DNA of 54,530 nucleotides from Acutalibacteraceae bacterium (GTDB lineage: Bacteria; Bacillota; Clostridia; Oscillospirales; Acutalibacteraceae): the NCBI GenBank assembly GCA_045656485.1, contig JAZORK010000080.1:1-54530 (forward strand), given 5' to 3'. Below the pieces are notes generated by a model, which made no database searches, had not been told where the DNA came from, and saw only the letters and a list, made by a program, of their open reading frames with translations. Shown piece by piece: positions 4,197-54,530 of this stretch. The translations under genes were made by a program, and so were the position numbers. Each line of letters starts with the position of its first letter. Position 1 is the first letter of the stretch.

Positions 4197-5873
4197 ATGA
4201 AGAAAATACTTTCTATATTATTAGTTTTAGTATTTGTTTTTTCAAGTCTCACCCTTTCAGCCTCTGCAACCACTACAGACACTTCCACTTGTGAAAAGCA
4301 CGTAGAAGAAATTGTTGTTAAAAAAGCAAGTACAAAAAAGAATGGCAGTGTAAATTTAGTTTGCAAAAACTGTAAAGAAAACATTGTTTCATCCGAATTA
4401 CCTAAAATTGCAGGTGCTTTTCTTTCTACAGAGGTTTACACCTATAACGGAAAGGAAAGAAAACCCTCTGTAACAGTATTAGACGACCACGGCCTTATAT
4501 TAACCAAAAATAAAGACTACACCATTTCCTACCCATCCGGAAGAAAAAAGTGCGGTAAATACAAGGTTGTAGTAAAATTCAAGGGTAATTATACCGGCAC
4601 GAAAAATTTATATTTTAAAATCACATCCGCTAAAACCGAAATAAAATCGCTTACCGTAGAAAGCAAGACCTCATTAAAAGTTAAGTGGAAATCAGTTAAA
4701 AAAGGTGTAACCGGTTTTCAAATCCAGTGTAGTACATCAAGCAAATTTAAAGATGGTACCGTTGTAACCAAAAAGATAAAGGGCTACAAGAATACTTCTG
4801 CCACAATTAAAAAGTTAAAGAAAAGCAAAACATACTATGTGAGAATACGCTCATATAACACTACCAGTAAAAAAACAACCTATTCTGATTGGTCGGACAA
4901 GGTAAAAGTAAGCCTTAAAAAAGATAATTATAGTGTAAAAAAACTTTTAAATTCCGAAAAGCTTAACCCACAGAAAACAAATGATAAATACCTTGACAAA
5001 CTGGTAACAAAAACCTTTAAAAAAATACACAAGCCTGGTATGACAACCTACGAAAAGGTAAAGGCTTGTTATGATTATCTTGTTAAAAATATGACCTATA
5101 AAAGCTCCTTCCGCTTTAATCAAACAGCCGGCTATGTTTCATTTTACGATGGTTTAATTGTTGATAATGCATATCACGCCTTATCAACAAAAACAGGTGT
5201 TTGTGATGATTACAGCGCCGCTTTTGTTGTAATGTGCCGCAGAATCGGGTTAGAAGCATATGTTGTTGGTGGCTCGGTTTCTAAAAAAAGTGGCGGTCGC
5301 ACAGGTCATGCTTGGACCTATATTTTGTTAAACGGCGAAAAATATATATTTGACCCACAAATTCAAACTCATAATTTACATGTTCCATATCATTATTTCG
5401 GTAAAACTTACAGTCAAATGGGTAGCACATATAAATTAGTTGCCGGCGTTTACAACGAAAAAGATTTTGCAAATTTCAAATGCCTTAGTTCTAAAGTAAC
5501 AAAGCGAGATATATCTTGTAAAATCACCGCAACCGGTAAAGATAATTCGGTTTCTTATTCCGCCGACCAGGATGGCTACACTTTAACTGCCTATGCCGAT
5601 AATTATTTTGACCCACCCATTAAGGCATATGGCAACAACTTTGCAAAAATTAAGTTGAAATTATCTGGCGGCAGTGGTAAATATGAAATACTTTTAGTCG
5701 AAAGTAAATCCGAAAAAATCATATATGATAGTGTTTGCAAAAAATCATGCTATTGGGATATAGATTTATCAAAATTCAAATCTAAAACAAACACCTTTGA
5801 CCTGTATGTATTCGATTATAACGGCGATTATTCTACCTATTTAAAAATAGCAGGAATACAGCTCAAGCGATAG
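4197..5873 (+). CDS. Secreted transglutaminase-like cysteine protease-fold protein with Ig/FN3-like N-terminal repeats
   Basis: It has a signal peptide. The transglutaminase core is GVCDDYSAAFVVMCRRIG ... GHAWTYILLNGEKYIFDPQ (Cys-His-Asp arrangement). A strong RBS, AAGGAG, lies upstream. Confidence 0.7.
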   Translation: MKKILSILLVLVFVFSSLTLSASATTTDTSTCEKHVEEIVVKKASTKKNGSVNLVCKNCKENIVSSELPKIAGAFLSTEVYTYNGKERKPSVTVLDDHGLILTKNKDYTISYPSGRKKCGKYKVVVKFKGNYTGTKNLYFKITSAKTEIKSLTVESKTSLKVKWKSVKKGVTGFQIQCSTSSKFKDGTVVTKKIKGYKNTSATIKKLKKSKTYYVRIRSYNTTSKKTTYSDWSDKVKVSLKKDNYSVKKLLNSEKLNPQKTNDKYLDKLVTKTFKKIHKPGMTTYEKVKACYDYLVKNMTYKSSFRFNQTAGYVSFYDGLIVDNAYHALSTKTGVCDDYSAAFVVMCRRIGLEAYVVGGSVSKKSGGRTGHAWTYILLNGEKYIFDPQIQTHNLHVPYHYFGKTYSQMGSTYKLVAGVYNEKDFANFKCLSSKVTKRDISCKITATGKDNSVSYSADQDGYTLTAYADNYFDPPIKAYGNNFAKIKLKLSGGSGKYEILLVESKSEKIIYDSVCKKSCYWDIDLSKFKSKTNTFDLYVFDYNGDYSTYLKIAGIQLKR

Positions 5874-33368: not shown

Positions 33369-34763
33369 ATGATTAATATGTCACAAATTAAAATGTATGA
33401 TGTTGCAATTATAGGCGGCGGTATAGGTGGTCTTATGGCGGCATACCGCCTTAAAGAAAACGCACCCGAAACTAAAATAGTTATTACCGAACGTGGTGAA
33501 AGGCTTGAAAAACGCCATTGTCCCGTTGGGCGTGACAAAACCTGTGTTCACTGTAAAACCTGTAGTATTACAAGCGGTTTTGCGGGAGCAGGCGCTTTTT
33601 CGGACGGTAAATTTAACCTTGGCACCGCTTACGGCGGAACTTTAGGTGAAGAACTAGGTGACACCCTTGCCAATAAATACATTGACGAGGTTGACAAAAT
33701 TCTAGATAAATACTGTACCTCAGGCAAGGTACGCGTTTATAAATCTAATGAAGACTTAAAGCTTAAATGCTTACAAAACAACCTTCGTTTGCTTGATATG
33801 AACGTTAAGCACTTAGGTACCGACAAAAACTTCTTAACAATGAAAAATCTTATCGCCGCTTTAGAGGAACAAGGCGTAGATTTACTTGATTTTTACGATT
33901 GCGAAGCAATTGAAAAATGCGATAACGGCTACCAGCTAAGTTACACAAACGGCGAAAAACTTTATGCCCAAAAGGTAATTATTGCCACAGGCAGAAGCGG
34001 TGCTAACTTTGTTGCCGATATTTGCCGTAGTTTTGGTATAAAAATGAGCTCTAACCATATCGACATCGGTGTTCGTGTTGAAATGAAGGACGTTATTTGG
34101 AAAGAATTTTCCGACAAAATTTACGAGCCGAAAATTCTTTACAAAACCAAAACCTTTGAAGACCGTTGCAGAATGTTCTGCTTTAATAAGGGCGGTCTTG
34201 TATCGGCCGAAAACAACCACGGCATAATAACCGCCAACGGTCACTCCTATGCCGAGGATGAGAAGCGCACCGAAAACTGCAACTTTGCAATTCTTTCGTC
34301 AATCCGCTTTACCGAGCCTTTTAACCAACCCACCGAATATGCTGAAAGTATCTCTCGCCTTGCTAATATGATTGGTAAAGGCAGCGTTATTGTGCAACGC
34401 TTTGGTGACCTTATACGAGGACGCCGCACCAACGACCACCGTTTAGGTCAAAACACCGTTGAGCCTACCTTAAAAGCCACCGCAGGCGATATTTCGCTCG
34501 TACTTCCCCACCGAATTTTAACCAACATTATTGAAACTATCTATGCGCTTGATAAGGTAGCCCCGGGTACTGCTAACGATGATACCTTGCTTTACGGCTG
34601 TGAAAGTAAGTATTATTCAATCCGTCCCCACTTTATGAATAACAACTTTGAGCTTACTGATAACATCTTTATTATCGGTGACGGCAGTGGTATTTGTCGT
34701 GGTCTTTCACAGTCGGGTGCTATGGGCATCTACGTTGCTGATTGTATAACTGAAAATTTGTAA
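33369..34763 (+). CDS. FAD-dependent protein of the uncharacterised NAD(FAD)-utilising dehydrogenase family (COG2509-like)
   Basis: Dinucleotide fold DVAIIGGGIGG, a Cys cluster HCPVGRDKTCVHCKTC, and a C-terminal GDGSG motif. Confidence 0.8.
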   Translation: MINMSQIKMYDVAIIGGGIGGLMAAYRLKENAPETKIVITERGERLEKRHCPVGRDKTCVHCKTCSITSGFAGAGAFSDGKFNLGTAYGGTLGEELGDTLANKYIDEVDKILDKYCTSGKVRVYKSNEDLKLKCLQNNLRLLDMNVKHLGTDKNFLTMKNLIAALEEQGVDLLDFYDCEAIEKCDNGYQLSYTNGEKLYAQKVIIATGRSGANFVADICRSFGIKMSSNHIDIGVRVEMKDVIWKEFSDKIYEPKILYKTKTFEDRCRMFCFNKGGLVSAENNHGIITANGHSYAEDEKRTENCNFAILSSIRFTEPFNQPTEYAESISRLANMIGKGSVIVQRFGDLIRGRRTNDHRLGQNTVEPTLKATAGDISLVLPHRILTNIIETIYALDKVAPGTANDDTLLYGCESKYYSIRPHFMNNNFELTDNIFIIGDGSGICRGLSQSGAMGIYVADCITENL

Positions 34764-34770
34764 AATAAAA

Positions 34771-34810
34771 AAGATATAATGTCATAATTTGTTTGACATT
34801 ATATCTTTTC
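34771..34810 (+). terminator. Rho-independent terminator that contains the -35 box of the xpt promoter
   Basis: 14-bp perfect stem AAGATATAATGTCA (34771-34784) / TGACATTATATCTT (34794-34807). TTGACA (34793-34798) plus a 17-nt spacer leads to TAGAAT (34816-34821). Confidence 0.7.
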
Positions 34811-34871
34811 TATTGTAGAATATACATATACTATTATTTATTTATTATCATTTTTTTGGGAGTGTTTGCGA

Positions 34872-45691: not shown

Positions 45692-45745
45692 AAAAAAGAA
45701 AAAGCCCCGTTAGGAATGCAGAAATTACTACGTTCCTAACGGGGT
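45692..45745 (-). terminator. Rho-independent terminator after fucO
   Basis: 13-bp stem ACCCCGUUAGGAA/UUCCUAACGGGGC followed by UUUUUCUUUUUU on the minus strand. Confidence 0.8.
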
Positions 45746-45791: not shown

Positions 45792-46940
45792 TTACATTAA
45801 CTTAAGATAAAGTTCTTTAATTTCTTCAACGCTTGTATCGCGGGGGTTACCAGGACGGCAAGCATCGTCAAATGCGGATTGTGAAAGGAAGTCAACGTCT
45901 TCAGCCTTAACAATTTCCTTAAGGTCAGCAGGGATGCCAACGTCGATTGACAATTGCTTAACAGCTTCGATAGCAGCCTTTCTTGCATCTTCAAGGCTCA
46001 TAGCATCTACGCCTTCAACGCCCATAACTTTAGCGATTTCTCTGTACTTTTCGCCGGTTTCGGGAGCGTTGTATTCCATAACGGTAGGAAGAATGATAGC
46101 ATTTGCAACACCGTGAGGAGTATCATACAAAGCGCCGAGGGGGTGAGCCATAGAGTGCACGATACCAAGACCTACGTTACTAAAGCCCATACCTGCGATG
46201 TATTGACCGAGAGCCATACCTTCGCGGCCAGCGTCGGTGTTTTCAACAGCGCCACGGAGAGATTTAGCAATAAGTTCAATAGCTTTTAAGTGGAACATAT
46301 CGCTCATTTCCCAAGCGCCCTTAGTAATGTAACCTTCAATAGCGTGGGTTAAAGCGTCCATACCGGTAGCAGCGGTAAGCGACTTCGGCATAGAAGCCAT
46401 CATATCGGGGTCAACGATAGCAACAACGGGAATATCGTGAACGTCTACGCAAACCATCTTGCGATTGTTTTCAGCATCAGTGATAACGTAGTTAATTGTA
46501 ACTTCAGCAGCAGTACCAGCGGTGGTAGCAACAGCGATGATAGGAGTGCAAGGATTCTTTGTGGGAGCAACGCCTTCTAATGAACGAACGTCAGCGAATT
46601 CGGGGTTGGTGATGATAATACCAATTGCCTTAGCAGTATCCATAGAAGAACCGCCGCCGATAGCCACGATACAGTCAGCACCGCTTGCCTTGAAAGCAGC
46701 AACACCGTTTTGAACGTTTTCAATTGTGGGGTTGGGCTTAATATCGCTGAAAATTTCATAAGCGATGTTAGCGTTATCAAGAATATCGGTTACCTTTTTG
46801 GTAACTTCAAACTTGATAAGATCAGGGTCGGAGCAAACGAAAGCCTTTTTAAAGCCTCGAGCCGTGATTTCGGTAGCGATTGCGTTAATCGCACCTTTGC
46901 CGTGGTAGCTGGTTTCATTGAGTACAAATCTGTTTGCCAT
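45792..46940 (-). CDS. fucO: Iron-containing alcohol dehydrogenase, lactaldehyde reductase (1,2-propanediol oxidoreductase) type
   Basis: 382 aa, collinear with E. coli FucO as I recall it (MANR..LNET, GGGS..D.AKAIG, TTAGTAAEVTINYVITD, GVANAI). Confidence 0.88.
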   Translation of the reverse strand: MANRFVLNETSYHGKGAINAIATEITARGFKKAFVCSDPDLIKFEVTKKVTDILDNANIAYEIFSDIKPNPTIENVQNGVAAFKASGADCIVAIGGGSSMDTAKAIGIIITNPEFADVRSLEGVAPTKNPCTPIIAVATTAGTAAEVTINYVITDAENNRKMVCVDVHDIPVVAIVDPDMMASMPKSLTAATGMDALTHAIEGYITKGAWEMSDMFHLKAIELIAKSLRGAVENTDAGREGMALGQYIAGMGFSNVGLGIVHSMAHPLGALYDTPHGVANAIILPTVMEYNAPETGEKYREIAKVMGVEGVDAMSLEDARKAAIEAVKQLSIDVGIPADLKEIVKAEDVDFLSQSAFDDACRPGNPRDTSVEEIKELYLKLM

Positions 46941-46958: not shown

Positions 46959-48371
46959 TTATATATTTTCAATTTTAATTAAAGACGTATTACCTGAGGT
47001 ACCACTTGTGTCGCCGCCTGTGATAATAATTTTATCACCCTTTTCAAGGGAAAGTTCCTGCTCGGCAATTTTCTTTGCGGTATAAAACAAAACGTCCGTT
47101 GAGCTGAAACGTTCACACATTGCAGGGATAACGCCCCAAGAAAGAGCAAGTCTTCTCCAAGTTCGTTCATCGGTTGTAAGACCAAGAATAGGAACAGGAG
47201 AACGGAAACGGGATACCATTCGAGCAGTCATACCCGAAAGCGAACAAGCAACGATTGCTTTGGCGTTAAGGTCAATTGCCATTCCGCAGGTAGAATGAGA
47301 GATAGCATCCACCGAATCTCTGATTTCAAAAGCTGCATTATGGAAGCGCTTATTATAGTGGATATTACTTTCGGTAGTTTCGGCAATTTCAGCCATTGTT
47401 TTTACCGATTCAATAGGATATTTGCCTGCGGCGGTTTCGCCCGAAAGCATAATAGCACTTGTGCCGTCATAAACCGCATTAGCAACGTCGGATATTTCGG
47501 CTCTGGTAGGACGAGGGTTAGAAATCATAGATTCAAGCATTTCGGTTGCGGTAATAACCCTTTTACCAAGCAAGCGGCACTTTGTTATCAACTTTTTCTG
47601 AATTGCAGGCAACATTTTGAAGGGTATCTCAACACCCATATCTCCACGGGCAATCATAATACCGTCGCACTCTTCGCAAATTTCTTCGATATTATCAAAA
47701 CCCGACTGATTTTCAATTTTAGCAATAAGCTCAATATCGTCGGCATTAAGCTCTTTAAGATATTCGTGAACGTCAATAAGGTCTTGCTTGTTTGATACAA
47801 AGGAACAAGCGATATAATCCACATCATTCTGAACGCCGAAAGCAATGTCTTTCTTGTCTTGTTCGGAAAGGTATTCTTGTTTCATTACTTTACCAGGAAA
47901 GCTCATACTCTTTCGATCCGAAAGCTCGCCGCCAACTACAACGGTGGATTCAATGTTTGCTCCGTCAATATTTACAACCTCAAATGTTAAAAGACCATTG
48001 TTAAGCAAAATGGTGTCGCCCACAGAAAGTTCGCTCGGCAAATTCTTATAACTTACCGAAACCTTGGTTTCATCACCTTCAACTTCGTCGGTGGTGAAGG
48101 TGAATTTATCTCCATCATTTAAGGTGATTTTATGATTGCGGAAGGTTTTAATTCTATATTCGGGGCCTTTGGTATCAAGCATAATAGCAATGGGCATTTT
48201 AAGGTCGGAACGAACCTTTTTAACAAGGTCAATTCTTCTCTGATGATCTTCGTGAGTATTGTGAGAAAAATTAAGTCTTGCCACGTTCATACCGGCTTTG
48301 CAAAGACCGGTTATTATTTCTTCAGTCTCACTTGCAGGACCTATTGTGCAAACAATTTTTGTTTTACGCAT
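46959..48371 (-). CDS. pyk: Pyruvate kinase
   Basis: 470 aa: MRKTKIVCTIGPAS, MNVARLNFSHN, MIARGDMGVEIP. Confidence 0.95.
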   Translation of the reverse strand: MRKTKIVCTIGPASETEEIITGLCKAGMNVARLNFSHNTHEDHQRRIDLVKKVRSDLKMPIAIMLDTKGPEYRIKTFRNHKITLNDGDKFTFTTDEVEGDETKVSVSYKNLPSELSVGDTILLNNGLLTFEVVNIDGANIESTVVVGGELSDRKSMSFPGKVMKQEYLSEQDKKDIAFGVQNDVDYIACSFVSNKQDLIDVHEYLKELNADDIELIAKIENQSGFDNIEEICEECDGIMIARGDMGVEIPFKMLPAIQKKLITKCRLLGKRVITATEMLESMISNPRPTRAEISDVANAVYDGTSAIMLSGETAAGKYPIESVKTMAEIAETTESNIHYNKRFHNAAFEIRDSVDAISHSTCGMAIDLNAKAIVACSLSGMTARMVSRFRSPVPILGLTTDERTWRRLALSWGVIPAMCERFSSTDVLFYTAKKIAEQELSLEKGDKIIITGGDTSGTSGNTSLIKIENI

Positions 48372-48445: not shown

Positions 48446-49873
48446 CTATTTTAAAATAGCAACAGCATCGCCGATAGTCTTTTCTAAAGCCTCTCTGCCA
48501 TACTTATCTACCTCGGATTTGTTTTTCTCACCGTGGGTCAGGCAACCTGCACCACCGATACAACCTCCGACACAAGCCATACCTTCAATGAAGTTGGCAT
48601 CGAGCACATTTTTGCTCTTTTTAAGCAGTGCCATACGGCATTCTTCGATACCGTCGCAAGCCACAGCCTTTAAGTCAAAATCAATACTTTGTTCTTTAAG
48701 ACCCTGCGCAACAGCATCAGAAAGACCACCGCTGCGAGCAAAAATTCTGCCGAAATAAGAAGCGTTATCAAGCACATCTTCACTGAGAGTTGTAATATCA
48801 ATGTCCTTGCTATCATAGAGGGCTTGCAGTTCTTCAAAAGTCATAACCGCATCAACATACGGTTTTACACTTTCAAGCTGTGCTTCTGCCTTTTTAGCAG
48901 TACACGGACCTATAAATACAACCTTGGCAGTTTTATCGGTACTCTTGATATACTTTGCTAATGCTGCCATTGGTGAAAGGTTATGTGATACTAAAGGCAA
49001 TAAATCGGGAAAAGCCGATTTAATATACTGCACAAAAGCAGGACAGCAAGAACTCGTTAAAAATCCCTTTTCAGCAAGTTCCTTCGATTCGGATTGTGCC
49101 ACCATATCAGCACCGAGTGCCGCTTCAATAACGGTAAAGAAGCCAAGTTCCTTAAGACCGGTGATAACCTGACCTAACTTTGCATAGGTAAACTGACTTG
49201 AAATAGAAGGTGCTACAATTGCATATACCTTATACTTAGTATTATACTCGCTTTTTTTAATAAGGTCAATAACATTCAGTATATAAGACTTATCCATAAT
49301 AGCGCCAAAAGGACATTGATAAACGCAAGCACCGCACTGAATACATTTGTTGTTATCAATAGCAGCGGCATTATCATCATTGATTGAAATTGCCTTTACC
49401 TTGCAAGCAATTTGACATGGGCGCTTACGGTTGATAATTGCTGAATATGGGCAAACCTTTGCACACTGACCGCATTCTACACACTTTGATTTATCAATAT
49501 GTGCTACGTGGTTATGGTCAAATGAAATAGCCCCTCTTCTACAAACGTCTTCGCAACGGTGTGCTAAACAGCCGCGGCAAGAGTCAGTTACTTCATAACC
49601 GGCGGCAGGACATTCATCACAAGCAATATCAATAACCTCGATAACATTAGGGTTATCTGTATCGCCACCCATAGCAATCTTAACACGCTCGCCTAAAATC
49701 GCACGCTCTTTATAAACACAACAACGCATTGTGGAAGTTTTGCCAGGCACGATCATTTTGGGGATTTCAATAATATTTTGAAGGAGAGTATCATTCCAAG
49801 CCTCGCGTGCCACTTCACGCAATACCTTATATTTCAGGTGTTGTACTTTAGTATCAAATTTTCTTACTCCCAT
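48446..49873 (-). CDS. [FeFe]-hydrogenase (group B-like, with several N-terminal Fe-S cluster motifs)
   Basis: H-cluster motifs TSSCCPAF, GPCTAKKAEA and EGMACVGGCIGGAG, plus two CxxCxxCxxxCP ferredoxin motifs and additional Cys clusters. Confidence 0.85.
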   Translation of the reverse strand: MGVRKFDTKVQHLKYKVLREVAREAWNDTLLQNIIEIPKMIVPGKTSTMRCCVYKERAILGERVKIAMGGDTDNPNVIEVIDIACDECPAAGYEVTDSCRGCLAHRCEDVCRRGAISFDHNHVAHIDKSKCVECGQCAKVCPYSAIINRKRPCQIACKVKAISINDDNAAAIDNNKCIQCGACVYQCPFGAIMDKSYILNVIDLIKKSEYNTKYKVYAIVAPSISSQFTYAKLGQVITGLKELGFFTVIEAALGADMVAQSESKELAEKGFLTSSCCPAFVQYIKSAFPDLLPLVSHNLSPMAALAKYIKSTDKTAKVVFIGPCTAKKAEAQLESVKPYVDAVMTFEELQALYDSKDIDITTLSEDVLDNASYFGRIFARSGGLSDAVAQGLKEQSIDFDLKAVACDGIEECRMALLKKSKNVLDANFIEGMACVGGCIGGAGCLTHGEKNKSEVDKYGREALEKTIGDAVAILK

Positions 49874-49885
49874 ATCAATTTCTCC

Positions 49886-51058
49886 TTAAAAATAACTCAC
49901 TTTTATTTTCTTGCCCATTTTTTTGAGGCACTTAGACAGTTCCTCAACCAAATTCATTTTAATATTAAAGTTTATCGGCAAATCGGGGTTTTGATGAGCA
50001 GGATTTACCGCTCTGCCTACATAGAAATTAATGTCAGTCGCTTCCTCAAATAGCAAACGGCAGATAAGAGAAGCACCGTCATGCTTAAAGCTCCAATGCT
50101 CATAATGCTTGTTTTCACCAAGATAATCCCTTGCATATTCAAGCACTTTGTTTACGGTAATAACACCTTCGGTAACAAGATCTACACCTTCAATTTCGGC
50201 AATTGGGGGCACATCACTCATTTCAAAATTAAGGCTTGCTTTAAGAGGCTTGCGCAAAAATTTTGCCGCAATAGAAGATGTTGTTCCACCACAAATAATG
50301 TGTTTGCCTTCCTTTGAGAAGAAGAGCGACATCATACGGTCGGCATCGTCACGATTTGAAGGTGGCCCGAATAGCATATTCATCGGTTCTCTTTTTCTGA
50401 TACGAACAACGCAAGCAGTTGCATCATCACCTGGTTTCTGACCGTAAAGCTTATCGCATTCGTCTACAAGCATTGTAGATAATGTTTTGGCTGTATATCC
50501 TGCGTGAGAAAGTGCTTCCATAAAGCCGGCAATATCTTCACGCTTCCAACCGAAGTTATAAGCCGTGCCGATACCTGCATGAGGACAACCGTCACTCATA
50601 GCAACAAAAATATCATTCTCCTGCAATTTGATAACCGATTTGTAAATCTTTTTACCGCCGATATGCATTTCTGTTTTGGGGTAATCCCAAACCTTTTCAT
50701 CACGGATAACAATAGCATGAGGATTGTCGTATTGTATAAGCTCAGCTACCTGATTGTTTTTAAGATGGATAATAGTAAAGGTAGAGTACGCAACCCCACG
50801 AACCGAACAAACAGGTAATGTTGCAGCGATAGTTTCAACACATTCTTCAAGACTTAAACCCTCTGCCAACATTGTTGAAATGATTTTTGAGGTAAGGGTT
50901 GAAAGAATACTCGCTTTAACACCACTTCCAAGTCCGTCCGACAGCACAATAACTGTAGAATCATCACTAGGTTCCACAATGTCTACATGGTCGCCGCAAA
51001 GCTGCTCGCCGTAATGATTTATACTTTTGTATCCTATATCAGCACATAAATCATTCAT
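49886..51058 (-). CDS. PP2C/SpoIIE-family serine phosphatase with a ~150-aa C-terminal domain of unknown function
   Basis: The N-terminal half CGDHVDIV...LSDGLGSGVKASILS...MSDG is SpoIIE/PP2C-like. Its start overlaps the hydS stop by 8 nt. Confidence 0.85.
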   Translation of the reverse strand: MNDLCADIGYKSINHYGEQLCGDHVDIVEPSDDSTVIVLSDGLGSGVKASILSTLTSKIISTMLAEGLSLEECVETIAATLPVCSVRGVAYSTFTIIHLKNNQVAELIQYDNPHAIVIRDEKVWDYPKTEMHIGGKKIYKSVIKLQENDIFVAMSDGCPHAGIGTAYNFGWKREDIAGFMEALSHAGYTAKTLSTMLVDECDKLYGQKPGDDATACVVRIRKREPMNMLFGPPSNRDDADRMMSLFFSKEGKHIICGGTTSSIAAKFLRKPLKASLNFEMSDVPPIAEIEGVDLVTEGVITVNKVLEYARDYLGENKHYEHWSFKHDGASLICRLLFEEATDINFYVGRAVNPAHQNPDLPINFNIKMNLVEELSKCLKKMGKKIKVSYF

Positions 51059-52730
51059 CTTGGATAGACTCCTTTAATTTGGCGAGTGCAATTTTGGTTT
51101 CCGCTGCGGTTTCACCGAGGAGGGATGCGATTTCCTGAACGATACGCATCTGTTTGTCAACAACCTTATCGGCAACCTCTATGGTCTGTCGGCTTATATT
51201 TTCTTTCTTTTCACGCTCATTTTGCTCATCGGTAATATCACGCATAATAGCAATAAGAAGGTGTGAATCCTTATCATAAACTACCGACTGCTCAACAAAG
51301 CGTTTATATTCAGCGAGATACACTCGCTCATCACGTACATCACGGCCTGTTCTTAAAACATTCATAAAAACAGTAGGATCAAGAATACGGATAACCTGAT
51401 CGCCAAGAATATCATTAGCGGAACGGATATTCATAAGTTTTCTTGCGGCAGTATTGATTTGCTGAACCTCAAGATTTTCATTAAGCACAATAAGTCCATT
51501 TGGAGAATTGTTAACAATGGTATCGGAAAAGCTTTCAGCCTTATCCTTAAGGAAGGGCAGACACATGGAAATCTCCGCCTTGCCCTGACAAATAGCGATT
51601 GCTTTTTCACGGCAGGTATTATATCCGCAAGAACCACAATTAAGTTCCTGAGAAGGCTTAAATTTACCCATTTGACGAAGTATATTTTGGATTTCCATAT
51701 CTGAAGGCATTTGAGAGCGTTGTTCAATAAACTCAAAGCTCTTTTTAAGCTCAACAGCCTTAAACTGAGATACCTCAAAATCCTTTGTTCCTGCATATTC
51801 AGAAATAGCAATATAATCCTTAACAGCAGAAGAACGATGGTATTTTTCCATAACAGGACCGCCTACACAGCTACCAATACAAGCGGACATTTCGATAAAG
51901 CATTTATGAACCTTACCGTTTATAATATCTTTAATAGCAGCAATACAATTGTCAACACCATCAAGCGCAAGATAAGTATAGCCAGGTGTATTCTGCGCCA
52001 TTGTTTTAAGAACACCGCCGGTTGTCGGGAAGAAACGTGCACGTGAACAAACATCGTTGTCGACTTCCTGTTCTAATTCAATTTTTTCCGCATTCAACCA
52101 TTCTGTAAGTTCTTCAAAGGTAAGCACAGCATCCACAATGCCGTCGTAGTGCTCAGCTTCATCCTTTTTAGCAACGCAAGGGCCGATAAATACGGTCTTT
52201 GCATTGGGATATCTATTTTTAATATCCTTGCAATGCGCCTGCATTGGTGATACAACATCAGCCAAATATTCAAGCGCTGCAGGATAATGTTTCTGAATCA
52301 ATAGGTTAATAGAATGACAACAGGAAGAGATAATAACATCTCTTTCATCCTCTTGGAGCATTCTTTCATATTCTGTTTTAACAATAGTGGCTCCGATAGC
52401 GGTTTCCTCAACATCATAAAAGCCCAACTTCTTTAAAGCTCTGCGCATAGCGTTGATACCAACACCTTCATAGTTTGCAATAAAAGAAGGGGCTAGACTT
52501 ACAATTACAGGATCTCCGCTTTGAAGAAGAACCTTTACTTTTTCGGTTTCGTCAACAATCTCCTTAGCATTCTGAGGACATACAACGAAGCATTGGCCAC
52601 AGAGAATACATTCATTGCCAATAATATGTGCCTGGTTTCCCGAAAAGCGAATAGCTTTAACGGGACAATGGCGAATACATTTATAACAGTTTTTACAGTT
52701 TGATTTTTTAAGAGTCAAACAATTTGGCAT
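51051..52730 (-). CDS. hydS: Sensory-type [FeFe]-hydrogenase (HydS/HfsB-like, group C) with a C-terminal PAS domain
   Basis: N-terminal 2x CxxCxxCxxxCP. Variant H-cluster motifs SSCCHS, GPCVAKKDEAE and EMSACIGSCVGGP. An extra CGSCGYNTC...C cluster precedes a PAS-like region and a C-terminal coiled coil. Confidence 0.85.
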   Translation of the reverse strand: MPNCLTLKKSNCKNCYKCIRHCPVKAIRFSGNQAHIIGNECILCGQCFVVCPQNAKEIVDETEKVKVLLQSGDPVIVSLAPSFIANYEGVGINAMRRALKKLGFYDVEETAIGATIVKTEYERMLQEDERDVIISSCCHSINLLIQKHYPAALEYLADVVSPMQAHCKDIKNRYPNAKTVFIGPCVAKKDEAEHYDGIVDAVLTFEELTEWLNAEKIELEQEVDNDVCSRARFFPTTGGVLKTMAQNTPGYTYLALDGVDNCIAAIKDIINGKVHKCFIEMSACIGSCVGGPVMEKYHRSSAVKDYIAISEYAGTKDFEVSQFKAVELKKSFEFIEQRSQMPSDMEIQNILRQMGKFKPSQELNCGSCGYNTCREKAIAICQGKAEISMCLPFLKDKAESFSDTIVNNSPNGLIVLNENLEVQQINTAARKLMNIRSANDILGDQVIRILDPTVFMNVLRTGRDVRDERVYLAEYKRFVEQSVVYDKDSHLLIAIMRDITDEQNEREKKENISRQTIEVADKVVDKQMRIVQEIASLLGETAAETKIALAKLKESIQDE

Positions 52731-52736
52731 ATCCCG

Positions 52737-52991
52737 TTACTCCCTTTCGATTTTACTTAGCACATTATCTTGGAAAAATTCTTTAAAATTCTCCCTTGTA
52801 ATGCCGACATGAATGTCATCATCAACCTGTACCGTAACACCGACACGATTACACTTGCCGATACAAAAACTACCGGCAAGTGTAACTTGATTTTCAAGAT
52901 GATATTCATTAACGGCTTTTTGCAGAAGTTCTACAATTTCGGGCGAACCCTTAAGGTGACAAGAACTACCCACACAAACCTGAATAATCAT
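52737..52991 (-). CDS. Thioredoxin-like [2Fe-2S] ferredoxin (NuoE/HndA-like small protein)
   Basis: 84 aa with the Cys pattern CVGSSCHLKG ... FCIGKCNRVG. Confidence 0.8.
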   Translation of the reverse strand: MIIQVCVGSSCHLKGSPEIVELLQKAVNEYHLENQVTLAGSFCIGKCNRVGVTVQVDDDIHVGITRENFKEFFQDNVLSKIERE

Positions 52992-52996
52992 ATTAT

Positions 52997-53236
52997 TTAT
53001 ACCTTCGCTTTAATATTCTTTTCAAAAAAGTCTTGCACATCTTCAGGGGTTACGGAATGGAATGCGTCATCTACGGTAACACACACACCCTGCTGACATT
53101 TACCCATACAGAAAGTGCCGCCGAGTTCCACCTTATCACCGAGATTATTTTCAGCAATAAGGTACTGAAGCTGTTCTACTACCTGACGTGAACCTTTAAT
53201 ATGACATGAACTACCTATACAAACTGTAACTTTCAT
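52997..53236 (-). CDS. Thioredoxin-like [2Fe-2S] ferredoxin, tandem paralogue
   Basis: 79 aa with the Cys pattern CIGSSCHIKG ... FCMGKCQQG. Confidence 0.8.
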   Translation of the reverse strand: MKVTVCIGSSCHIKGSRQVVEQLQYLIAENNLGDKVELGGTFCMGKCQQGVCVTVDDAFHSVTPEDVQDFFEKNIKAKV

Positions 53237-53258
53237 TATGTTTTCCTCCCGATTATCC

Positions 53259-54008
53259 TTATTCGTAATCTACAACGTTTACCCAAGAGAGCAAGAATTC
53301 GCGCTCTTTTTCATTGCCCTTAACCGACTGAGAAGCGGCTACAATGGGCATCCACTTTTGAACGTACTGCTTTGCAGTATTACTTTTTTTGCAGAACAAA
53401 TCGAGATACTTTTTAGCACCGTCGATATTGCCATTCAACCAAAAGAGCAAGTAGGTACGAGCCGCATCAGCAGAAGCATTACCCTGTGTTGCGTGAGACC
53501 AGTCGATAATGTAAGGTGTACCGTCTTCGGTGATGATAATGTTTGAAGGGTTAAAGTCGCCGTGGCAAACCTTATTATGCTTAGGCATACCTTCAAGGCG
53601 AGTATGCAAATCATAACGGGTAGTAGCGTCAAGCTCTGTGGAAGCAATTTTAACACTCATTTTATCCTTAAGTTTGTTAAGTAACGGAGATTTCTTATCG
53701 TGAACTGAGAGCTGCAAGTCAACGAGCAATTCGATATATTCATCCTTTTTCTCAGCATTTTCTTCCATAAGCTGAGCTAATGTTTTGCCCTTGATATACT
53801 CAGATACGATTGCCCATTTACCGTCAACCATGGTAACTTCCAAAACTTTTGGAATATTAAGACCGGTTTCTTCGATTCTTGCTTGATTTAATGCTTCGTT
53901 CAAAACATCGGCTTTAGAATAATCAGCGTTAAAAACCTTAACGCATCTATCACCATCACGGTAGATAGTTTTATTATTTCTTACTGCGATAACTCTATCA
54001 AGTTTCAT
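53259..54008 (-). CDS. Small protein kinase-fold protein (APH/Bud32/eukaryotic-like Ser/Thr kinase type)
   Basis: 249 aa with a VKVF Lys, the catalytic loop CHGDFNPSNIII, and the metal-binding IIDWSHA. No sensor or TM domain. RBS AAGGAGG. Confidence 0.75.
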   Translation of the reverse strand: MKLDRVIAVRNNKTIYRDGDRCVKVFNADYSKADVLNEALNQARIEETGLNIPKVLEVTMVDGKWAIVSEYIKGKTLAQLMEENAEKKDEYIELLVDLQLSVHDKKSPLLNKLKDKMSVKIASTELDATTRYDLHTRLEGMPKHNKVCHGDFNPSNIIITEDGTPYIIDWSHATQGNASADAARTYLLFWLNGNIDGAKKYLDLFCKKSNTAKQYVQKWMPIVAASQSVKGNEKEREFLLSWVNVVDYE

Positions 54009-54022
54009 CTTTATTTCCTCCT

Positions 54023-54299
54023 TAGGGTGACAAGAGTTAAATTTGTCACGCCTGACAAATAATAATTTTATGTTTTTTCTTGCCTCATCATTTGTAATAC
54101 AATAGTATTACTGCATTCTTCGGCTTCGCCCTACCAAAAAATTATTGATTTGGCAGGTCGGAGAATTTCTCTCTGACACCTTTTTTGAAAGGCGCAGCGT
54201 GAAATTTATAGTAAGGCTATTTGCCTTACAAGAATGAACGCAAGAAAGGCGGAAAAGGTGTCGAGTGAAATCGTAACCGATTCAACTCTTGTCACCCTA
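54023..54299 (-). repeat. 277-bp unit bounded by perfect 16-bp terminal inverted repeats, highly structured as RNA (candidate cis-regulatory RNA or MITE)
   Basis: TAGGGTGACAAGAGTT (54023-54038) and AACTCTTGTCACCCTA (54284-54299). At least five internal helices are found by eye (see findings). Confidence 0.6.
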
Positions 54300-54530
54300 T
54301 GCCTTCTTACCCTTGCGGTAGGTAACTTTTACATCGTCAACCTTAGCGGTAGCCGCAACATCAGCTGCGGTGGGCTTCTTGGTTTCTACGAAGTGCTTGC
54401 CGTAGTAAGCATTGAGATACATTTGCTTAATTTCGCTCATAAGCGGATAACGGGGGTTAGCGCCTGTGCATTGGTCGTCAAATGCTTGTTCAACCATTTC
54501 ATCAATGTTTTCAAGGAATGCATTTTCATC
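54297..54530 (-). CDS. adhE: Bifunctional aldehyde/alcohol dehydrogenase AdhE, C-terminal end (5' part lies outside the window)
   Basis: AFDDQCTGANPRYPLMSEIKQMYLNAYYG matches the AdhE C-terminus (E. coli: AFDDQCTGANPRYPLISELKQ). The frame is open to the window edge. Confidence 0.9.
   Translation of the reverse strand, partial: DENAFLENIDEMVEQAFDDQCTGANPRYPLMSEIKQMYLNAYYGKHFVETKKPTAADVAATAKVDDVKVTYRKGKKA

Follow-up and report, generated by a model that had tools for sequence, protein, structure and literature searches.

In an Acutalibacteraceae bacterium (contig JAZORK010000080.1; the window, below, is the whole stretch of 54,530 nt that was analysed), the spacer between adhE and a sensor operon that begins with a kinase gene is filled by a foldback element of 273 bp. 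The unit in the spacer is an insertion: it ends in terminal inverted repeats (TIRs) flanked by TA, and relatives carry the same two genes with an empty site between them. It is a single-copy orphan, present at the same junction in two other genomes (L013 and L014), and among the three carriers it has changed far more slowly than the third codon positions of the adjoining genes. What is noteworthy is an orphan, single-copy foldback that evolves as slowly as protein-determining positions; exapted hairpins that resemble MITEs (miniature transposable elements with inverted repeats) are, as a kind, already known. The reading we prefer, and to which we give a little more than even weight, is that of an exapted, transposon-derived rod hairpin: a single old insertion at the adhE stop codon that has been under selection and is co-transcribed in the adhE-HydS mRNA.

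The inserted unit, its empty sites and its predicted fold

A first-pass annotation of this DNA had placed the inverted repeat, the adhE stop, and the Shine-Dalgarno sequence (SD) and ATG of the kinase gene, and all of these positions proved correct. The parts of the junction are as follows, with the minus strand as the sense strand.

54025..54297, minus strand: foldback element GGGTGAC...GTCACCC, 273 bp, the inserted unit; absent in empty-site relatives, at the same site in L013, in a deletion form in L014
54298..54299, no strand: adhE-side TA, putative copy 1 of the target-site duplication and the initial two bases of the TAG stop (relatives have TAA here)
54023..54024, no strand: kinase-side TA, putative copy 2 of the target-site duplication, with AGGAGG next on the sense strand (read from the sequence)
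54284..54297, minus strand: adhE-proximal TIR, GGGTGACAAGAGTT on the sense strand, with an imperfect extension to 54272
54025..54038, minus strand: kinase-proximal TIR, with an imperfect extension to 54050
54106..54223, minus strand: central branched domain, 118 bp, deleted in L014 (from the alignment; the deletion joins the paralogous hairpins GTAAGGC / GTAATAC)
54211..54229, minus strand: hairpin GUAAGGC-AAAUA-GCCUUAC of the 5' half, with a paralogue in the other half
54094..54111, minus strand: hairpin GUAAUAC-UAUU-GUAUUAC of the 3' half, paralogue of the 54211-54229 hairpin (from the half-unit alignment)
54041..54060, minus strand: perfect 8-4-8 palindrome AUUUGUCA-GGCG-UGACAAAU adjoining the kinase-side arm, not enriched elsewhere in the window
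54185..54212, plus strand: promoter-like TTGAAA-16-TATAGT, antisense; in L013 the -10 is TGCAGT, and L014 lacks the region through its deletion
54297..54530, minus strand: 3' end of adhE, 77 codons up to the edge of the window, where the gene is cut, domain ADH_Fe_C, with its TAA stop now TAG through the insertion
54297-54299, minus strand: adhE stop TAG (read from the sequence)
54006..54020, minus strand: SD AAGGAGG (54014-54020) and kinase ATG (54006-54008), outside the element and accessible in predicted folds

The segment 54023-54038 (TAGGGTGACAAGAGTT) is the exact reverse complement of 54284-54299, which makes a perfect inverted repeat of 14 nt, or of 16 nt when the palindromic TA is counted, with an imperfect extension to 26-28 nt at 86% complementarity. 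None of 100 shuffles of the window reached three matches to the arm, and the repeat is the sole long-range inverted repeat of such quality in the 54.5-kb window, the others being local hairpins of the terminator type. Two intergenic palindromes elsewhere in the window, at 34758-34820 (27-nt arms, 89% complementarity) and at 45705-45744 (abutting arms of 20+20 nt), are unrelated in sequence to the element and are probably terminators.

The symmetry of the unit extends well beyond its ends, as the whole is an end-to-end imperfect palindrome composed of two inverted homologous halves of ~138 nt each, which are 59-62% complementary. In the hairpin that the two halves have in common, the stem is kept through a double compensatory change, GG:CC in one paralogue and UA:UA in the other. 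The hexamer TGACAA/TTGTCA occurs four times in the element, exactly as had been counted at first. Open reading frames (ORFs) inside the element of the window reach 20-30 aa only and include no transposase gene. An intra-element ORF of 75 aa in L013 is without homologues, and the copy in the window interrupts it; when it was used to seek called ORFs among 5.8 billion proteins, no candidate was returned. A small peptide starting at a GTG at 54295 was likewise rejected, the ORF being 29, 75 and 29 aa long in the three genomes with differing C-termini and hence not conserved.

Comparison with relatives reveals the junction as it is without the element. In the empty-site genomes (L001-L011, L015, L026-L029 and L031, with loci fetched for eleven cluster representatives), whose kinases are 87-92% identical to that of the window, adhE ends in GCR-TAA and is separated from the kinase ATG by 15-26 nt that hold only the SD. 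The adhE-kinase spacer of the window measures 288 nt. Removal of the element together with one TA leaves GCA TAA GGAGGAAATAAAG ATG, and this reconstituted site, GCATAAGGAGG, has the layout of the empty sites, so the proposal of a TA-flanked insertion with a clean empty site is upheld in its core. The insertion changed the adhE stop from TAA to TAG and shifted the ribosome-binding site (RBS) of the kinase gene 275 nt downstream. A TIR with TA as its last two bases would look the same as a duplicated TA, and the nearest empty site, that of L015, differs in sequence from the exact predicted one.

Prediction gives the unit an unusually stable fold. The energy of the 277-nt unit is -103 kcal/mol, whereas dinucleotide shuffles give -56 +/- 4.9 (z = -9.6); the opposite strand forms an equally stable fold (z = -10.0), because the whole unit is an imperfect palindrome, and the 159 nt that remain in L014 still fold as one rod (z = -8.0). 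The closing helix contains 20 contiguous predicted pairs, and 27/28 pairs in the consensus. Six helices had been drawn by eye in the first reading of the sequence. All six exist as complementary segments, but only four of them (GUAAGGC/GCCUUAC, CUGCCAAA/UUUGGUAG, GUAAUAC/GUAUUAC and UUUGUCA/UGACAAA) are part of the minimum-free-energy (MFE) fold of the window, while the 10-bp helix GACACCUUUU/AAAAGGUGUC and the GAAUCG/CGAUUU helix are alternatives that this fold leaves unused. The large helices have U-rich tracts before them and A-rich tracts after them on both strands. The sense strand from 54009 to 54299 contains no intrinsic terminator, that is, no GC-rich hairpin followed by a U-run, in agreement with the initial inspection.

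Copy number and descent

An exact 20-mer scan for the arm through one genome per species (185,579 species) matched only L013 and L014, both at the junction of adhE and the kinase gene. L013 is the Acutalibacteraceae metagenome-assembled genome (MAG) SGB_7948 and carries the full element; L014 is the Clostridia MAG RGIG9001, from water deer, and carries it with the 118-bp central deletion and one arm mismatch. The scans of large collections demanded exact 16-20-mers, and the genomes are MAGs. An 18-mer scan of the JGI metagenomes and a 16-mer scan of IMG/VR yielded lone arm-length matches with no partner arm. The viral matches (L016 and L017) and eight metagenome matches were lone arms of 17-24 nt, in unrelated genes or in a CRISPR spacer, and were dismissed as chance. 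The spacer belongs to a CRISPR array (L020:9100-9200, repeat GTCGCTCCCCCCGTGGGAGCGTGGATTGAAAT) in which the 18-mer match lies; one 34-nt spacer shares 17-19 nt with the terminal repeat, and with half the spacer matching only, the match is most likely fortuitous.

Searches of plasmid and phage collections by blastn with the whole element and with one 46-nt arm found nothing, and nothing in the other 54 kb of the window resembles the element. A half-unit profile run with nhmmer against 281 kb of related loci and the window recovered the three known copies only. In L027, a 27-nt stretch at 5489-5515 (TCATCATTTGTAATACTTTAGTAATAC) matches the hairpin region of the 3' half at 24/27 positions; it lies in AT-rich intergenic DNA with no terminal repeat nearby, and the resemblance is probably due to chance. 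The L013 contig, assembled by MEGAHIT at k = 141, passes unbroken straight through the 273-bp unit, which argues against other near-identical copies in that sample.

The features that define a MITE are thus represented unevenly. The element has terminal inverted repeats, is 273 bp long (<~500 bp) without a transposase gene, and has TA on both sides with empty sites in at least 11 lineages. Neither dispersed copies within a genome nor an autonomous insertion sequence (IS) sharing the TIRs was found in the collections, which were searched with exact words. The MITE label suggested by the first-pass annotation did not survive the search for further copies, which led to one locus only in two other genomes. 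The TA flanks are consistent with a MITE of the IS630/Tc1-mariner type, for which no matching partner was found. Some elements of the IS5 group also duplicate short TA-containing targets, and TA alone does not assign a family. The 48 ORFs of the window include no transposase or recombinase.

The rate at which the element has changed sets it apart from its surroundings. Between the window and L013 it is 96.3% identical, versus ~84% overall and ~60% at third codon positions for the flanking genes, and it is the most conserved block of a 6-kb synteny; non-coding DNA past the last shared gene cannot be aligned. Across the carrier genomes the element is 96-98% identical and the flanking third codon positions 60-78%. 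The ratio of element distance to third-position distance is low in every pair.

Window and L013: ratio 0.065 (Fisher P 6e-27)
Window and L014: ratio 0.061 (Fisher P 2e-18)
L013 and L014: ratio 0.075 (Fisher P 9e-10)

Divergence of the element therefore scales with that of its hosts, at ~1/15 (~6-7%) of the synonymous rate, as is predicted by vertical descent with purifying selection and not by three independent recent arrivals. The early intuition that the spacer is functional gains support from these values, as the element is far more conserved than neutral DNA. Conservation also ends sharply: of the eight bases that separate the SD from the ATG, four are different in L013 from those in the window, and flank identity falls to background within 25 nt towards adhE and about 11 nt towards the kinase gene. 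With identity at background right beside the element, import by homologous recombination is excluded. The comparison of sequences favours one old insertion that has been kept by purifying selection and lost in one nested lineage.

The element could instead be recent and selfish, spreading site-specifically or horizontally, so that the lineages of the window, L013 and L014 each acquired it anew, without any host function, and L015 never had it. Targeted insertion at the TA of the adhE stop/RBS, or gene conversion of very short tracts, would provide the route. Such an account is in keeping with the patchy distribution and the empty site nested in the clade, with the L015 site, which is like that of the outgroup L001 in its TAATT start, and with the high identity and the sharp boundary at the element ends. 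The deletion derivative in L014 is typical of decaying MITEs, and the substitutions show no structure-preserving pattern. However, two or three independent insertions would be needed at the very same TA with none elsewhere, and no other site is occupied in the complete L013 and L014 MAGs or, in exact-end scans, in the 185,579 species genomes. Ordinary homologous-recombination tracts are excluded by the background-level flanks, the scaling with host synonymous distances in all three pairs is unlike that of independent recent arrivals, and the window encodes neither a transposase nor a recombinase to drive the spread. We consider recent spread unlikely and infer selection in its place.

Several observations weigh against an old insertion preserved by selection. 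In the host tree, (WIN,(L015,(L013,L014))) with bootstrap values of 99-100% over 1,628 sites, the empty-site L015 is nested within the carriers, so that one loss, replacement or recombination event must be assumed; its junction, GCATAATTCAGGAGGG, differs from what precise excision would leave behind. The loss of 118 bp in L014, and of the whole in L015, sits awkwardly with an element that is supposed to be essential. The TA duplication comprises only two bases, one copy of which is fixed by the stop codon. Exact-word scans for paired TIRs at IS-like spacing found none and hence no parent IS, and with neither a transposase nor a parent IS found, transposition is deduced from anatomy alone. The known copies number three, with 12 variable columns in total, and among these sequences none of the 88 consensus pairs carries a compensatory change. 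Two of the 12 variable columns are paired, as against 64% of all columns, a deficit to which a simulation of the RNAalifold bias assigns P = 0.12; on single-sequence folds the same comparison gives P = 0.03-0.05, so that avoidance of paired columns is weak. Appositions of G.U and A.C number 13 and 15, without strand bias, and this, together with the equal folding of both strands, makes a role at the DNA level possible. Avoidance of stems, which was significant when tested naively, was dropped as evidence after the bias-corrected simulation.

Two of the differences between the window (54145-54156) and L013 (L013:1692-1703) are adjacent double changes. One, CA to TG in a hairpin loop, is the inversion of TCAA to TTGA; the other, AT to GC, creates four new base pairs in L013. 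Both look like template-switch (quasi-palindrome) mutations and not like independent point changes.

Regulatory readings of the element

The first-pass annotation had offered, as one of two readings, a riboregulator resembling a riboswitch expression platform, in which the RBS-side arm would pair either over a long range (16 bp) or locally (7 bp) and, by switching, gate translation of the kinase in response to a ligand or signal. Both pairings are possible, and the high conservation and strong structure of the element speak for such a device. The long helix is, however, overwhelmingly favoured, since a closing helix of at least 20 bp outweighs the 7-bp pairing in the MFE and centroid folds. 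Masking of the RBS, also suggested, finds no support either: the SD lies in neither helix, is unpaired in the MFE fold and is equally accessible with or without the element, opening of the SD-AUG region costing 1.1-2.5 kcal/mol versus 0.8-4.0 in empty-site relatives. The central domain, the sole candidate aptamer, is dispensable in L014; the unit is an inverted duplication and not an asymmetric aptamer fold; compensatory changes are missing; and most relatives have no such element. A search of the spacer against Rfam at E <= 10 returned no family, only a single spurious snoRNA match that lies inside adhE. The riboregulator is unsupported in the form in which it was put forward, and we judge it highly improbable. 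Across the 54.5 kb no Rfam family reached its gathering score, despite the presence of a pyrimidine-biosynthesis cluster (~8.8-17.3 kb), a possible site for a leader RNA.

Action as double-stranded DNA is the next reading to consider. The element would then be a cis-regulatory module that governs how adhE or the sensor operon is transcribed, bound, for example, by a regulator that reads the motifs GTGACAAG / TTGTCA-N4-TGACAA found at its two ends, and the foldback symmetry would be a mere trace of its transposon origin. Strong conservation of primary sequence without compensatory changes, and the equivalence of the strands without G.U bias, are what this reading predicts, and the four TGACAA/TTGTCA hexamers, the perfect 8-4-8 palindrome 35 nt upstream of the kinase ATG and the 4 occurrences of GTGACAAG in the window, versus 0.8 expected, supply candidate binding sites. 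Yet the sense strand of the element carries no sigma-70-like promoter, the sole promoter-like site being antisense and not conserved; the palindrome motif was not found upstream of other window genes; and operators normally conserve short motifs, not 273 contiguous bases. A DNA-level module remains, in our estimate, a slim prospect. A Rex box or other operator was rejected, as the rest of the window shows no enrichment of the palindrome, whose spacing also departs from the published Rex consensus of the TTGTGAA-N4-TTCACAA type. A 16-mer at 52952-52967 (TAAGGTGACAAGAACT), inside the second ferredoxin gene, has the GTGACAAG core and differs from the terminal repeat by 3 mismatches.

The antisense promoter-like site is probably non-functional, and it bears on a further possibility, that of an inverton in which the 16-nt inverted repeats are recombinase sites and a flip of the 245-bp interior turns the TTGAAA-16-TATAGT promoter towards the kinase operon. 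The length of the repeats and the size of the segment fit known invertons, and the promoter-like site inside does point away from the kinase operon. The interior is itself palindromic, however, so flipping it would change little, and the window encodes no recombinase among its 48 ORFs. L013 has TGCAGT where the -10 should be, which destroys it, and L014 has lost the promoter region to its deletion; this lack of conservation, with a single orientation in 3/3 genomes, makes the inverton unlikely, to the point of being scarcely credible.

The exapted hairpin that we prefer would have arisen by one insertion into the TA of the adhE TAA stop in the ancestor of a small clade of gut/rumen Acutalibacteraceae. 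Vertical inheritance under strong purifying selection would have followed, with loss in at least one nested lineage (L015) and trimming to the 159-nt rod in L014. The element would be transcribed within the adhE-kinase-HydS mRNA, which is made probable by the lack of a sense-strand terminator and by the tight adhE-kinase-HydS operon of relatives; co-transcription of adhE with the sensor operon is consistent with that lack and with the 15-26-nt spacers. In the message it would form a self-contained RNA rod whose 20-27-bp closing helix joins the adhE stop to the base of the kinase SD and leaves the SD free. Such a rod may serve as a double-stranded determinant of processing or stability, for example as an RNase III site like those of Correia elements, and processing there would uncouple the abundant, stable adhE message from the low-abundance sensor genes (kinase, ferredoxins, HydS and PP2C). 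Processing by RNase III or control of stability is a function suggested by this analogy. A more far-reaching version, which we hold to be decidedly unlikely, has the domesticated transposon relic form a new structured cis-regulatory RNA, or a dual RNA/DNA module, specific to the adhE/HydS-operon junction. The strength of selection on it would match that on protein-coding positions, and the ratio of ethanol enzyme to H2 sensor in Clostridia of the ruminant gut would be set or switched by it.

Gene neighbourhood, related elements and significance

The element lies between the orthologue of the 890-900-aa genes (Aldedh+Fe-ADH) that represent adhE in relatives and the following genes, all on the minus strand.

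49886..54008, minus strand: sensor operon 3' of adhE (by domain content; gene order same in relatives)
53259-54008, minus strand: APH/RIO-type kinase, first gene of the operon
52997-53236 and 52737-52991, minus strand: two 2Fe-2S thioredoxin-like ferredoxins
51051-52730, minus strand: HydS-type [FeFe] hydrogenase with a PAS domain
49886-51058, minus strand: PP2C/SpoIIE phosphatase

For Ruminococcus albus and Thermoanaerobacterium, a role in H2 sensing and in the control of ethanol formation has been proposed for the kinase, HydS and PP2C genes next to adhE (PMC5707799, citing Zheng et al. 2014). Like the operon described here, the HydS/hfs operons beside adhE in these organisms combine a PP2C phosphatase with a Ser/Thr kinase and a PAS-containing [FeFe] hydrogenase (PMC5707799). 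Descriptions of them mention no intervening structured element, whereas here, in a few lineages only, a 273-bp rod separates adhE from the sensor genes. Close homologues of the kinase number in the thousands and come from uncultured Acutalibacteraceae and from MAGs labelled "Clostridia bacterium", one kinase cluster alone having 1,615 members; a search of IMG/VR with the kinase gave no match. Exact matching of window proteins returned no entry for the kinase or the second ferredoxin, and for the first ferredoxin a single contig of 834 bp that stops short of the spacer.

Downstream of the PP2C gene, also on the minus strand, lie another [FeFe] hydrogenase, which lacks a PAS domain (48446-49873), pyruvate kinase (46959-48371) and an Fe-alcohol dehydrogenase that stands alone (45792-46940), and this gene content identifies the neighbourhood as a cluster for fermentation and redox functions. 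A LysR-type regulator is also encoded nearby. Elsewhere, at L030:812-1500, a gene for a Rex-like repressor (Put_DNA-bind_N + CoA_binding) stands directly upstream of the kinase, in the usual place of adhE, and is another tie between the sensor operon and redox regulation. In L027 (3001-5250) and L028, adhE and the kinase gene are followed not by ferredoxin, HydS and PP2C genes but by unrelated genes on the opposite strand (PadR, DUF6120), and in this lineage the operon appears truncated.

Small structured elements between co-transcribed genes are familiar from other bacteria. In Correia elements the TIRs are sites of RNase III cleavage, and mRNA decay is altered by ERIC elements that lie at the 3' ends of genes (PMC2649163 and PMC10969869 for the former, PMC10969869 for the latter). 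Correia elements (CREE/NEMIS, of Neisseria) resemble the present one in being small and non-coding, in having TIRs and a duplicated TA, and in lying between genes of one transcription unit. They are co-transcribed as a long hairpin; RNase III acts on its TIR helix, which alters what becomes of the flanking mRNA. Here the hairpin is a predicted one. CREE are 100-155 bp long, occur in about a hundred or more copies per genome and are confined to Neisseria. The element described here is, by contrast, a 273-bp foldback over its whole length, single-copy, found in Clostridia and without sequence similarity to CREE. ERIC/IRU elements of Enterobacteria and Vibrios are, like it, imperfect palindromes located just after stop codons in transcribed regions (PMC10969869), but they are 127 bp long, number 30-700 copies per genome (PMC10969869), belong to Gammaproteobacteria and are unrelated in sequence. 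The element showed no similarity to anything in Rfam or in the plasmid or phage collections, and the host phylum differs; the likeness to both families is functional only. Wilson and Sharp reportedly found in 2006 that ERIC elements show unusual conservation across species, and selection versus spread was at issue there too. With the IS630/Tc1-mariner MITEs (RUP, Nezha) the element has in common a TA duplication, TIRs, the absence of coding capacity and clean empty sites; unlike them, it has no IS630-type partner with matching ends and no second copy in the collections searched.

A practical lesson from this locus is that a structured spacer with the look of a riboswitch can be a foldback insertion, a matter that the empty sites of relatives settle quickly. 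Recent, site-specific spread, if that is the true history, would make the element an unusual instance of insertion targeted to a stop codon/RBS junction. If the domesticated relic is a regulator in its own right, it would represent a new regulatory class, beyond a target of RNase III. Should the selection reading be true, the element would offer a clean natural case of a transposon-like insertion exapted in a bacterium, present in one copy, datable and provided with empty-site controls, and changing at a rate as low as that of amino-acid-determining positions. Its position lies between adhE and the proposed H2-sensing module, the presumed arbiter between ethanol and H2 formation in fermenters of the rumen and gut, and the lineages with the element and those with the empty site form a natural comparison for the tuning of operon stoichiometry.

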